Below, piece by piece: positions 6,430 through 47,385 of a DNA stretch of 64,000 bases. The first letter of the stretch is position 1, and each line of letters starts with the position of its first letter. Source of the stretch: Octopus sinensis (Eukaryota); contig NC_043005.1 of NCBI RefSeq assembly GCF_006345805.1, positions 24,800,001 through 24,864,000 on the forward strand, read 5' to 3'. The notes under the pieces were generated by a model, which had not been told where the DNA came from, made no database searches, and saw only the letters and a program-made list of their open reading frames with translations. A program made the translations under genes and the position numbers.

Positions 6430-7250
6430 GATTTAGTTTTAGTTCCCCTCCCCCTGCACCTCAGTGCAGTTGGCTTGTACATCGTGCAGCAAAACGTCTC
6501 CAATCATCTCGGTTTAGAGTATAGTCGCTTGGATCTCTTCATGTGATGTTAAGTTGCTTCATATCTTCTTTGAAGGTGAAGCGCCATGTCTTGCGTTTTT
6601 TTTTCCTTTCCTCCATCCCTCTTGTGCTACTTATTGTGTAGCTGTTTTGGCTATTTGTTCTTCTGGCCGTCTGAAAACATCTCCTGCAAGTCTCACTCTT
6701 CTTTCTGCTACAATCTCCTGCATATTGCTCAGATTGACCCTTCTCGGGATTTCGGAGTTTGTAATCCTGTCCCTCTTGGTGATTTTGAACATTCTGCGTA
6801 GACTCCATTGGTGGAATGCATTCAAACTCTGGGTAATCTTGGCAGTCATTTCCCAAGTTTCTTTTGCGTAGACTGCTGTTAGCAGACACTGTTCTGGTAC
6901 AGCAGGGTCTTCATAGGACAGAATCACGCTCAGTGCTCCATTAAATGACAATCAGAGTGGCTAAAGATACAACAAAGGCAAGCCTAAGGATCAGCCCCCC
7001 CCACCCAAAAGACCAAAGTGTTGAAGAGCAGTTGACAAGGGGAGACGCCAATTCTTATGAATCAAGAACCCGTTGGAGACATCACCAACTGCATCTTCCT
7101 GGGCAATATTATTGCTGCAGAGGAGGATACTGAGGCAGACGTCAACTCCAGAATCGGGCGTGCAGCAATGGTGTCCAGAGGAATGAACAAAATCTGGGCC
7201 AACGCTTGGATTAGCAACTGCAAGCAGGTTGCACATCTGTTTATGATGCT
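6430..7250 (-). mobile_element. RTE-clade LINE 3' portion with inverted 5' segment
   Basis: Minus strand ~6890-6430: TAVYAKETW...LNAFHQWSLRRMFKI...RRVRLAGDVFRR...KTWR. Plus strand ~6920-7250: SLRIS..KTKV..FLGNII..DVNSRIGRA..MNKIW. Confidence 0.85.
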
Positions 7251-17178: not shown

Positions 17179-17525
17179 TACATTATTTACATTTGACGGA
17201 TATTTGTCCTCATCTTGTTCGTTGTTAACACAACGTTTCGGCTGATATACCCTTCAGCCTTCATCGGGCATGGTTAAGAGCGCATGCTACCAATCCCAAG
17301 ATTCAGAGTTCGATTCCAGGTAGTGACCTGAATAATAATAATAATAACATCGAAAAATACCTTAGGAATGAGAACCTAGGTTCGAAATTTCCCCAAGATA
17401 CCTGTTGAAGGCTGGAGAGTATATCAGCCGAAACGTTGTGTTAACAACAAACAAGATGAGGACAAAATATCCGTCAAATTTAAATAATGTACATAATTCC
17501 TCATCTCATAAATATAGAACTGTAT
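17179..17525 (+). mobile_element. tRNA-head/hammerhead non-autonomous element preceded by an inverted tail copy
   Basis: Inverted tail 17179-17270, tRNA-like head 17271-17330, (AAT)n, then HHR motif 17397-17442 (core mutated to CTGTTGA) and tail. Confidence 0.8.
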
Positions 17526-18332: not shown

Positions 18333-19040
18333 ATTAGATTGTCTGGAAAGTTTTGAGCGTTTTTTAATATGCAAAATAGGGATATACTTCATGAACCTAC
18401 TTTTTCCAACTCTGCAAGTTCTCCAGTCGAGATATTTGAGTTTTCTTCGATTTTTGCCTTCAAAATATTTTCATCCAATTTTGAAGGTCTTCCGCTGCGA
18501 CTGTCATCTTCCAAGCTAAACTCTCCACCTTTAAATTTTGCAAATCACCTTTCAACAAATATTGTTTGCCAACATAACATGGCAGTCCTGGTTTAGGACA
18601 AATGTTGCTGTAATTTAGCCCCAGGAGACATCCTCTCCAGCTGGCTATACAACACGATCTGTGTCCTTATATTTTCAAACAAAGGAATCTAGCACCCCCA
18701 CTCAGATATTGTTTTGAGCTGAGTTGGGGTGCTAGATTCCCATGTTCGAAAATATAAGGACACAGGTCGTGTCGTATAGCCAGCTGGAGATGATGTCTCC
18801 TGGGGCTAAATTACAGCAACATTTGTCCTAAACCAGGACTGCCATGTTATGTTGGCAAGCAATCTTTACTTCAAAGTACTGTTGCTGAATATCTCACCTT
18901 TGAACAGGTTTTTGCAAGTCTTTGCAGCACTTTCTCCTTTTTTTTTCTTTAAAACAAATTAAAAGCATTACAATGCGAATATGAAATTTACCAAAAAGTG
19001 CACAAAGTGGTGATCATTAGCTTCCAGACACTTTTTAGTA
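18333..19040 (-). mobile_element. Mariner remnant interrupted by a palindromic insert
   Basis: Minus-strand peptides GESAAKTCKNL and RRPSKLDENILKAKIEENSNISTGELAE (mariner HTH region); TA-TTAGATTGTCTGGAAAG end. Confidence 0.65.
18561..18863. repeat. ~300 bp near-perfect palindrome (foldback/MITE)
   Basis: Arms 18561-18705 and 18719-18863 are reverse complements with few mismatches. Confidence 0.9.
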
Positions 19041-44423: not shown

Positions 44424-45247
44424 GCATTTTGAGTATAACTCTCCACTCGAGTGAAGTAGTGAATGAATTTTATGAATGAAATATTTCCGTATCCTGATGG
44501 ACTAGGAATTGAAATTTGAAATACTATCTTCTACCGAACATGGCAACATAACGGTTATTGACCGACTTAGATAAGGGCTCTCAGGACACTAGCGACATTT
44601 GTGTCAATAAGAAAAGATTTTTGATGGAAGGGGAATGAGTTTATATTATTACTAATATACGTAAAGGAGGGTCACCATTTGTATTTGGTGTTCAGTGTAT
44701 CTAGTGCAAAGCACTTAACACACGGGTGCACGCACGTACATACCTGTGTGTGTGTGTGCGCGCGCGCAGACTGGTTTTAGCAAGAATTCTGGGATTAGGT
44801 CACGGTTGTGGTGGTGGTGGGGAGAGAGAGAGAGAGAGAGAGAGAGAATGGGCTCAGATGGAAGGACATCAATAGATGGGCGAAAATGGTAGAAAATGGT
44901 AGAAAACTAATTGCAATAGAAATTTTCTAAACGGAACAAGGACTTGATTGACGAAAAAAGAAGGCAAAACAAGGACTGATGGAAATACCTCTCATTAGCC
45001 ATGGCAATTTAGACTACAGGCGCAGTTTCGGCACGTTTCAAGTCCGAAGACTTTAAGTTCAAATTGCGCAAATGATATAGTGAATATCACTGACGTAATG
45101 AAAAAATATGAGCAAAACATAAGACGACGGAATGTTGCAAGGCATCTCTTGCGATGCTCTTGACTACACTGCCAGCTCGCCGCCTTTATATTCTACCTTT
45201 ATATGAGATATTATCTCTTATTTTGAGTCATTATTTAAATGAAACAA

Positions 45248-45960
45248 GGCAGCGAGCTGGCGGAATCGTTAGCACGCCGGGTGAAACGCTTAGCGGCATT
45301 CCGTCCGTCCTTACGTTCTGAGTTCAAATTCCGCCGGGGTGGACTTTGTCTTTCATCCTTTTGGGGTCAATAAAATAAGTACAGGTCAAGAACTGGTCTC
45401 CTTCAAATTCCAGGCCTTGTGCCTGTTATACAGAAAGGATTATTTAAATGAAACAAGGCAGCTAGCTAGCTGAACCGTTAGTACTTCGAGCAAAACGCTT
45501 TACGGCATTTCGTCTTCAAATTCCGCCGAAGTCGAACTTGCCTTTCATCCTTTCGGGATCAACAAAATAAGTGCCAGTGAAGTACTGGGGTCGATATAAT
45601 CGCCATACCCCAGTGCTAAAATTTGAAAGCTTTTTTTAACTGGCGAGTTTGCAGGCTCGTTAGCGCACCGAAAAAATATGCTTAGCAATATTTCTTCCGG
45701 TTTTTCAAGTTCTGCTTTCATTTACCCCTGAGGTCGACCTTGTCTTGTACTCTTTCGCGGTCGATCGATTTCCTCTCCCGCCAAAATTATTGGCCTTTTG
45801 TCAAAATTACAAAGTATTATTTAACTGGAATTGTAGGGTTGTGGACTGCAGAACAGGCAGAGCTTCGGATAAAAATTGCTTGCAGTATTTAATTACGACC
45901 CTTTACGTTCTGAGCTCAAATGCTACCAAGATTTGACTCTTATCTCTGAACCCTCTGGTG
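45248..45960 (+). mobile_element. Tandem diverged SINE family A copies
   Basis: Copies at 45248, 45457 and ~45640; ATTATTTAAATGAAACAAGGCAGC duplicated. Confidence 0.8.
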
Positions 45961-45988
45961 TCGTTATCAAAATTAAGTTGATACGATT

Positions 45989-46109
45989 TTATATTTAAGA
46001 GATGAGGAATTATGTACATTATTTACATTTGACGATATTTGTCCTCATCTTGTTTCGCGTAGTGGTTAAGAGCGCGGGCTACAAACTCCAAGATTCCGAG
46101 TTCGATTCC

Positions 46110-46140
<31 letters not shown>

Positions 46141-46266
46141 TCAAAAAATACCTTAGGAATGAGGAATTATGTACATTATTTACATTTGACGATATTTGTC
46201 CTCATCTTGTTTCGCGTAGTGGTTAAGAGCGCGGGCTACAAACTCCAAGATTCCGAGTTCGATTCC

Positions 46267-46300
<34 letters not shown>

Positions 46301-46440
46301 TCAAAAAATACCTTAGGAATGAGAATCCAGGTTCGAAATTTTCCCAAGACACCTGATGAAGGCTGGAGGGTATATCAGCTGAAACGTTGTGTTAACAACA
46401 AACAAGATGAGGACAAATATCCGTCAAATGTAAATAATAT
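45989..46440 (+). mobile_element. tRNA-head/hammerhead element with inverted tail and an internal ~157 bp tandem duplication
   Basis: [inverted tail + tRNA head + (AAT)n] x2, then HHR and tail; AGTTGATA on both flanks (possible TSD). Confidence 0.85.
46348..46393 (+). ncRNA. Minimal type I hammerhead ribozyme motif (PLE-type)
   Basis: GACAC-CTGATGA-A-GGCTG[GAGGGTATAT]CAGCT-GAAA-CGT-T-GTGTT: stem I GACAC/GTGTT, 5-bp stem II, loop-less palindromic stem III. Confidence 0.75.
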
Positions 46441-47385
46441 TCAGTTGATATACTGAGGTTTGTGTGATGCAGTTTGACCAGCGACTGGAAAGAGGGACTC
46501 AGGCAACAACCATGATAATAAGGACGAAGCACATGTTAACTCTCAACTACCATAATTTCTCTCACTGACGCATCCACACTTCTGTGACAATGACTCACAG
46601 CTTAAGACGAGAATAAAGAACATTTTGTTACTGTTAGTTCTTTCCTTCCTTCTTTTTTGGGCGATGTCTTTTAAACTCTGGGTCAGCCATCAATCTACCC
46701 ACCGCTCGTTCCCCCTCTTTACCGCGCGCTCTCTGTCCGCCTAACTCTTCTCTTCTCTTCCTGTCTTTGCTCTGTCTGTCTCTTTGCCTCCTCTCTCAGG
46801 CCCTAATTTTGTCTGTATCTCTTTCTCACCCACCCTTTTCTCACTTTCTTTCTCTCTTTGTCTCCAGTTCTTTCTCTATAATGGGCGATGTCTTCTAAAC
46901 TCTGTCAACCTTCACTTTCTCCCTCTTTCCACTTCATCTTCTGTGAAGTGTTTGTTTGTTTCCTCTGGCTCCATGTGGAGATTGTGTCCACATCATTATT
47001 TAACATTAACGAAAATTGTGTTGAGTGGGTGGGCGTTACCAAAGCAATAAACAAACCAACACATTGGAATATACAGAAAATTCGTGTTTGTAGGTATGGG
47101 TGCATGTGTATCGGAATGATTGTATGTATTTACATATTTCGTGTGTGTGTGTGTGTGTTTGAATTCCTTAATCAGACGAAGGTACATAAACATACACATA
47201 CATAAACATGTATACACAAAAAATGCATAAACACAAATAATTCAGCTATGGAAAAAAAAAAAAAAAATTACAGAAATTGCCGAACAAATTTTCAGGTTTG
47301 ATATACTTTCTCCGAAAGATCGTCAGTAAGATTTTTTGTTTTTTCCACTTTTAAAACTTGTCCAACATCATGGCGAAGAAAGAAT

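Follow-up and report, generated by a model that had tools for sequence, protein, structure and literature searches.

Endonuclease-bearing Penelope-like elements (PLEs) of the Penelope/Poseidon type encode a reverse transcriptase (RT) followed by a C-terminal endonuclease (EN), and their terminal repeats (pLTRs) contain the first ORF codons together with a hammerhead motif (PMC3846280, PMC8557442 and PMC11167929, in the parts drawn on here). Their insertions show an inverted, 5′-truncated copy, a tail of about 31 nt at one end, a target-site duplication (TSD) and a palindrome at the pLTR start (same sources); all of these insertion features recur in the octopus family described below. The inverted layout is reported together with two RT start sites (PMC8557442, PMC3846280, PMC11167929), and for an anole PLE in vitro both strands are cut and extended from two internal RT start sites, which were alike between strands in the account of PMC11167929. 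Pairs of hammerheads on opposite strands, 100–700 bp apart, as well as single motifs, have been read as truncated PLEs (PMC4209133). The promoter of Drosophila virilis Penelope is described as internal, LINE-like and TATA-less (PMC2377424).

The locus analysed here lies in a window of Octopus sinensis DNA (the whole stretch studied, 64,000 nucleotides), and consists of an insertion at 45984–46438 (455 bp) between 12-bp TSDs with one mismatch (Table 1). It is an ordinary PLE stump plus a probable later duplication. Most probably, a 5′-truncated, head-to-head pLTR insertion was made between these TSDs, and a 157-bp block within it was copied at a much later date, as DNA, by way of 5 nt of microhomology. 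The TSD score at the locus is 9, which 1.5% of 1,560 mismatched flank pairs attain, and the candidate TSD proposed in an earlier, sequence-only reading, AGTTGATA, is the exact core of the duplication. No empty target site was seen for this insertion. The antisense tail at 46175–46212 pairs with the sense tail at 46400–46438 with one bulge (predicted duplex –51.8 kcal/mol), as had been suggested, but the long hairpin itself would be possible only in a read-through transcript derived from the flank.

Table 1. Features of the insertion locus (positions are those of the window)
Feature	Position	Strand	Remarks
Left TSD	45972..45983	+	12 bp; one mismatch to right copy
Inverted arm: pLTR 3′ end plus long (about 31-nt) optional tail	45984..46055	-	1-nt deletion, absent from sense arm
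Tandem unit 1, 157 bp	46002..46158	+	Part of antisense tail, inversion junction, head, (AAT)10, 19 nt before ATG
tRNA-Arg(ACG)-like head, copy 1	46057..46109	+	A box clipped; B box 46100–46109, then 13-nt deletion
Tandem unit 2, 160 bp	46159..46318	+	As unit 1, but (AAT)11; 5 nt of microhomology (ATGAG) at the join
tRNA-Arg(ACG)-like head, copy 2	46214..46266	+	B box 46257–46266
(AAT)11 tract, between head and ORF start	46267..46299	+	
PLE ORF codons 1–40	46319..46438	+	Start inferred at ATG 46319; terminates at pLTR short end
Minimal type I hammerhead (predicted), palindromic helix III	46348..46393	+	G10.1–U11.1 replaces G–C; predicted cut after 46388
Right TSD	46439..46450	+	Partner of 45972..45983

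All of the single-stranded core bases of the hammerhead are present, in agreement with the sequence-only reading. Stem I (46348–46352/46389–46393) is followed by CUGAUGA (46353–46359) and an extra A (46360) before helix II; stem II pairs 46361–46365 with 46376–46380, GAAA occupies 46381–46384, and the palindromic AACGTT at 46383–46388 stands in the place of helix III. One correction concerns the conserved G10.1–C11.1 pair, which is G–U in the window copy (46380 is T; most family copies have C); stems I and II have a predicted stability of –9.3 kcal/mol, against –11.2 kcal/mol with the family C11.1. The description of this copy as the best preserved applies within the window, where the hammerheads at 17.2–17.4 kb have core changes, but not genome-wide, the 39-nt family form of the motif having 1,081 exact genome matches. 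The same architecture is also found 3′ of a distant PLE ORF (locus L221). An Rfam scan of the window returned no hammerhead and no tRNA, the sole matches being to microsatellite-driven miRNA models below the cut-off.

Elsewhere in the window, the family has another head-to-head insertion at 17179–17522, with both hammerhead cores mutated, and two heads with (AAT)n stand back to back at 2700–2933, with no hammerhead body on either side. Shortly before the insertion, another abundant short repeat is present as two tandem copies at 45230–45590 (about 200-bp spacing, 81–83% alike) and as a fragment at 45900–45960. Open stretches on the minus strand resemble what we take to be pieces of a mariner-type transposase (122–514) and of the C-terminal part of a LINE RT (6542–6910). 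The long, near-perfect hairpin at 18646–18778, with a weak, sub-cut-off Rfam miRNA match, is probably a miniature inverted-repeat element.

What had been called a tRNA-head/HHR element is, judged by its sequence context, the pLTR of a PLE with RT and a probable GIY-YIG-type endonuclease, in which a tRNA-like head is followed by (AAT)n, the start of the ORF with the hammerhead, and a tail. When the genome was searched with the hammerhead region, 2,634 candidates came up at first look, and at one locus a broken RT-endonuclease ORF was found directly upstream of the repeat; the end of this ORF was then used as a genome query. Of the 30 loci found in this way, 28 have an ORF 3′ end that continues directly into the head and (AAT)n, in most cases with body and tail behind it; when the query and two near-duplicates are set aside, the figure is 25 of 27. 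At the other end of the element, an upstream pLTR copy at L096 shares the reading frame of the ORF and can be aligned with the N-terminal part of an 847-aa relative (E 2e-20), and window positions 46319–46438 translate to the first 40 residues of the ORF. Among 30 loci found with the 5′ part of the ORF, three insertions (L235/L238, L239 and L245) start at the head and continue into the ORF, while L242, L249 and L250 are true partial tandems. The head thus leads into the ORF and also follows its end, and the short element is therefore the pLTR.

Every copy of the ORF seen is broken. Of four ORF pieces scanned, one matches RVT_1 (E 9e-9), and 81 of 520 candidate homologues align at E≤1e-20, with up to 70% identity; the full-length ones are 800–850 aa long. 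GIY-YIG and CCHH endonuclease motifs are readable in the translations and in the relatives; the Pfam model gave no match on the endonuclease piece, and PF01541 was found in two distant homologues. No zinc-finger linker between RT and endonuclease was seen by eye in the translations. The family thus combines a single RT ORF, a pLTR composed of the 3′ UTR and the ORF start with a direct upstream copy, a predicted minimal hammerhead in the pLTR, and an inverted truncated copy with a 30–40-nt tail at one end and a TSD, all features of EN+ PLEs. Many copies (L242, L243, L246, L254 and L259; L235/L238, L237 and L239) contain the pLTR and no more than the first 320–510 nt of the ORF, followed by its 3′ part or by an end; these are either internally deleted derivatives or the products of further RT start sites.

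Junction structures were catalogued at 90 loci, drawn in the order of their genome positions from the first 100 exact hammerhead matches on the list, a sample biased towards well-preserved copies; matches that fell in or next to an insertion already counted were left out, as were a few of the last ones listed. An adjacent antisense piece is present at 51 of the 90 loci and an inverted tail at 40. TSDs (score at least 9), mostly 10–15 bp long, flank 25 of the 40 inverted loci, against 6 of 39 loci with no inverted piece; mismatched flank pairs reached this score in 1.5% (inverted) and 0.9% (direct) of cases. Inverted, TSD-flanked insertions of a pLTR belonging to a PLE with RT and a probable GIY-YIG-type endonuclease are therefore a main form, which bears out the PLE-type integration proposed from the window alone; the opposite picture, of mostly direct insertions with LINE-type tails and TSDs, does not hold. 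Hammerhead cleavage as the event that defines the element end was rejected because the cut site is the right end at only 1 of the 90 loci.

Right ends instead cluster at two sites about 31 nt apart, with 43 loci at one, 44 at the other and 3 elsewhere. At 35 of 38 inverted loci (two of the 40 could not be scored), the long end and the short end lie on opposite sides (P 7e-8 against 0.5), and this coupling suggests that in any one event each strand has its own start site. The element enzyme would nick both strands about 12 bp apart, the two internal start sites would give rise to one cDNA apiece, and these 5′-truncated products would then join head to head. It is equally possible that the inversion arises by fold-back self-priming at the near-palindrome of the head start. 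The two PLE start sites are apparently used in a coupled manner rather than chosen independently. Six insertions of the family, none including the ORF, were counted in a sample of 599,800 bases made up of sixty 10-kb stretches set at round-number positions; from this count, about 27,000 insertions are estimated genome-wide, with a wide margin of roughly 10,000–59,000. With so many insertions, the 35/38 pairing is a testable constraint on the mechanism of PLE integration.

At six loci in two sets (L004, L044 and L056; L048, L051 and L150), the body is joined through (AAT)n to the 3′ ends of two other AAT-ending repeats, which suggests joining by microsatellite microhomology. L056 and L057 (G000:C1:84872193-84875655) lie on opposite strands, 3.4 kb apart, with the same downstream flank, and resemble a larger inverted duplication.

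The tRNA origin of the head rests on alignment. Seven natural heads were compared with 10 tRNA types of the genome, a set that covers part of the isotypes and whose Arg gene was located by a motif search; tRNA-Arg(ACG) gave the best alignment in all seven, with scores of 13–21 against shuffle maxima of 10–12. An A box is present in 19 of 30 copies and a B box in 35 of 48, whereas ARAGORN and Rfam (tried on the window and on the isolated head) do not call the head a tRNA. At G000:C2:3121912-3162236, the tRNA-Arg(ACG) motif matches about 90 times, for the most part within a tandem array that repeats every 206 bp or so. In metagenome data, nine distant PLE loci were found (30–55% identity), and the six scanned showed no tRNA or A/B-box pair, a comparison that carries little weight.

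A head with A and B boxes is what a tRNA-derived SINE would have, and it is conceivable, if rather doubtful, that the short element is a separate SINE family with its own source genes which borrows Penelope enzymes. Its nearest match to tRNA-Arg(ACG) accords with this, as does the distribution of ends: the sense arms start within 37 nt around the tRNA start at 32 of 90 loci and reach the ORF at only 8, and the ORF is missing from all six randomly sampled insertions. The head, however, belongs to an ORF-bearing element at both pLTRs, and PLE pLTRs often start at a palindrome (in the account of PMC3846280), as the octopus head does at its near-palindrome. A separate subfamily was sought in the majority base of each column and was not found; a single CpG site aside, no column sets the 79 short copies apart from the 37 that are linked to the ORF. 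A distinct non-autonomous unit (SINE2) was likewise rejected, the whole unit being the PLE pLTR. Short copies may nevertheless act as RNA polymerase III (Pol III) sources, which would leave no subfamily signal.

TTTT runs were also counted, their depletion having been predicted from Pol III use beforehand. Five long ORF copies contain 0, 0, 0, 0 and 1 TTTT, and 126 kb of aligned copies contain 36 runs, none of them common to more than 3 of the 32–70 copies covering the site. The majority sequence over 2,359 nt (a 2.36-kb ORF) has none, where shuffling predicts 4.2 (P 0.012); A runs occur at normal frequency. By comparison, 147 TTTT were counted over 35 kb in 15 other RT families of the genome (4.2 per kb, or 1.4 times the number in their shuffled sequences), and 36 over the 4.3 kb of four PLE pieces from metagenomes. 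The deficit is weaker against synonymous shuffles (20 seen, 61 expected, in 28 non-independent copies); TCT is under-used in the ORF as much as TTT, and a control piece (L264) also has 1 TTTT against 3.5. The depletion amounts to one data point, because it concerns one family and the controls include no other PLE family of this genome.

Together, the tRNA-Arg-like head, the 32 of 90 starts located there and the lack of conserved TTTT hint at Pol III transcription. The tRNA-derived head may be the internal promoter of the element; if so, transcripts from the downstream pLTR would supply most of the short copies, and Pol III would be the likeliest polymerase for these short RNAs. A bolder reading is offered tentatively, as a possibility with the balance against it: the family would be a protein-coding Penelope with a captured tRNA promoter, purged of Pol III terminators over 2.4 kb, whose full-length template RNA, and perhaps mRNA, is made by Pol III, and whose downstream pLTRs have spawned tens of thousands of SINE-like copies. 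A Pol III mRNA leaves the translation of uncapped RNA unexplained. If true, a Pol III-transcribed, ORF-bearing retrotransposon would break the usual rule that autonomous elements use Pol II and SINEs Pol III, and would offer a direct route for a SINE-like family to arise inside its own partner. The window copy, with the 13-nt deletion after its B box, is an unlikely source of transcripts, because its A box is clipped and a TTTT lies at 46339.

The reiterated block, described earlier as repeated twice with a period of about 157 bp, is borne out as 157 + 160 bp. Its two units show no differences in the 127 nt outside the microsatellite, where (AAT)10 stands against (AAT)11, and one extra C lies at 46056, in the inversion junction of unit 1. 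The proposed microhomology at the join stands as an exact 5 nt, ATGAG, but the preceding GGA is not common to the start of unit 1. The duplication join has a single genome occurrence, at the window locus, and the inversion junction has two, which are the two window units. Both units carry three locus-specific changes, namely the 13-nt deletion, a CpG change and a 1-nt deletion in the antisense tail, the last of which is found neither in the sense tail of the same insertion nor in other fetched loci (96 normal). Two head substitutions were dropped as private changes, being a minor subfamily trait (6 matches); three other inspected loci of that subfamily are without the three locus-specific changes.

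The arm pairs of 31 other insertions (at least 60 sites each) differ by 2.5–18.6%, and of the non-CpG changes found over 2,813 sites, 267 are private and 14 shared; sequence change in these insertions is nearly all post-insertional. Direct tandems of the hammerhead unit occur at 3 of the 90 loci (L152, L159 and L172), and these same-strand units differ by 3.4–18%. The absence of differences in 127 nt therefore indicates that the duplication is much younger than the insertion. The original insertion would have been about 298 bp long and would have accumulated mutations before slippage or microhomology-mediated repair, between the ATGAG of the antisense tail and that of the start codon, copied the block. 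Against late duplication, the age of the insertion is judged on few sites (TSD mismatch 1/12, between-arm indel 1/39), and gene conversion is possible. The sense body differs from the family majority at four positions, two of them at CpG and some also found in other copies.

The block is either a younger duplication or an assembly error, and template switching is unlikely as its cause. An assembly or polishing error, the true locus having one unit, is itself improbable. The units are alike except for one AAT, the join is unique in the assembly, and among short-read contigs of six sequencing runs none crosses either the inversion junction or the join of the duplication with 31 letters of sequence to left and right, although contigs of several runs reach the left or right flank junctions; depths were left unused because they are swamped by other copies. 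However, such a failure to bridge is expected for so repetitive a family, the AAT number differs between the units, and the join sits on 5 nt of microhomology, which natural duplications often have at their joins. Reiteration at insertion, during reverse transcription or second-strand synthesis, as the sequence-only reading proposed, is very unlikely: repeated switching during insertion does happen in this family, since L161 (1 of the 90 loci) has two inversion junctions built from different pieces, the join falls exactly on the ORF ATG and later gene conversion might have homogenised the neighbouring units, but the inversion junction is not contained in the element RNA, so that template switching is not supported, both units have an identical junction and the same three changes, and 0/127 differences compare with a minimum of 2.5% among the 31 arm pairs.

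The minimal hammerheads of metazoan PLEs are, in the description of PMC4209133, likewise of type I, with a short helix I, an extra base before helix II and palindromic 15.2–16.2 positions; nothing essential differs from them beyond the G–U at 10.1–11.1 of the window copy. Helenus and TRIMp3 share a tRNA-derived sequence in the terminal repeat, proposed to be a Pol III promoter, but are non-autonomous LTR elements with a PBS and PPT, whereas the octopus head belongs to an ORF-bearing PLE; the autonomous partners of Helenus have been argued to need Pol II (PMC10886601, in the parts concerned). Schistosoma Sm-alpha also combines a Pol III-type promoter with a hammerhead, but has a canonical hammerhead, tandem non-coding units and the promoter at the 3′ end of the cleaved unit, and the sections of PMC6765202 consulted give no description of it as part of a PLE.

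Animal non-LTR retrozymes similarly have type I hammerhead repeats related to PLE pLTRs but are defined, in the account of 10.64898/2026.07.22.740005, by tandem arrays, whereas the octopus insertions are mostly single or inverted; a retrozyme identity was rejected on the direct tandems at 3 of 90 loci. The octopus repeats OR1 and OR2 are listed as CORE-SINEs (PMC4824008 and PMC4758252, in the parts seen); the PLE family, compared with these by description only, has no body domain between the head and the ORF start. In its tested sequence features, the octopus family can be classed as an EN+ PLE, and neither as a separate SINE nor as a retrozyme. In the freely available main texts that were searched, no description of a tRNA-headed pLTR or of PLE transcription by Pol III turned up; Repbase or Dfam may contain an entry for the family. 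The octopus family differs from Penelope/Poseidon PLEs in that its pLTR begins with a tRNA-Arg-like head and (AAT)n and its ORF strand is without conserved TTTT. The inverted layout is already known for PLEs; the unusual part is the tRNA-Arg-like head that starts the pLTR, together with an ORF that has no conserved TTTT.
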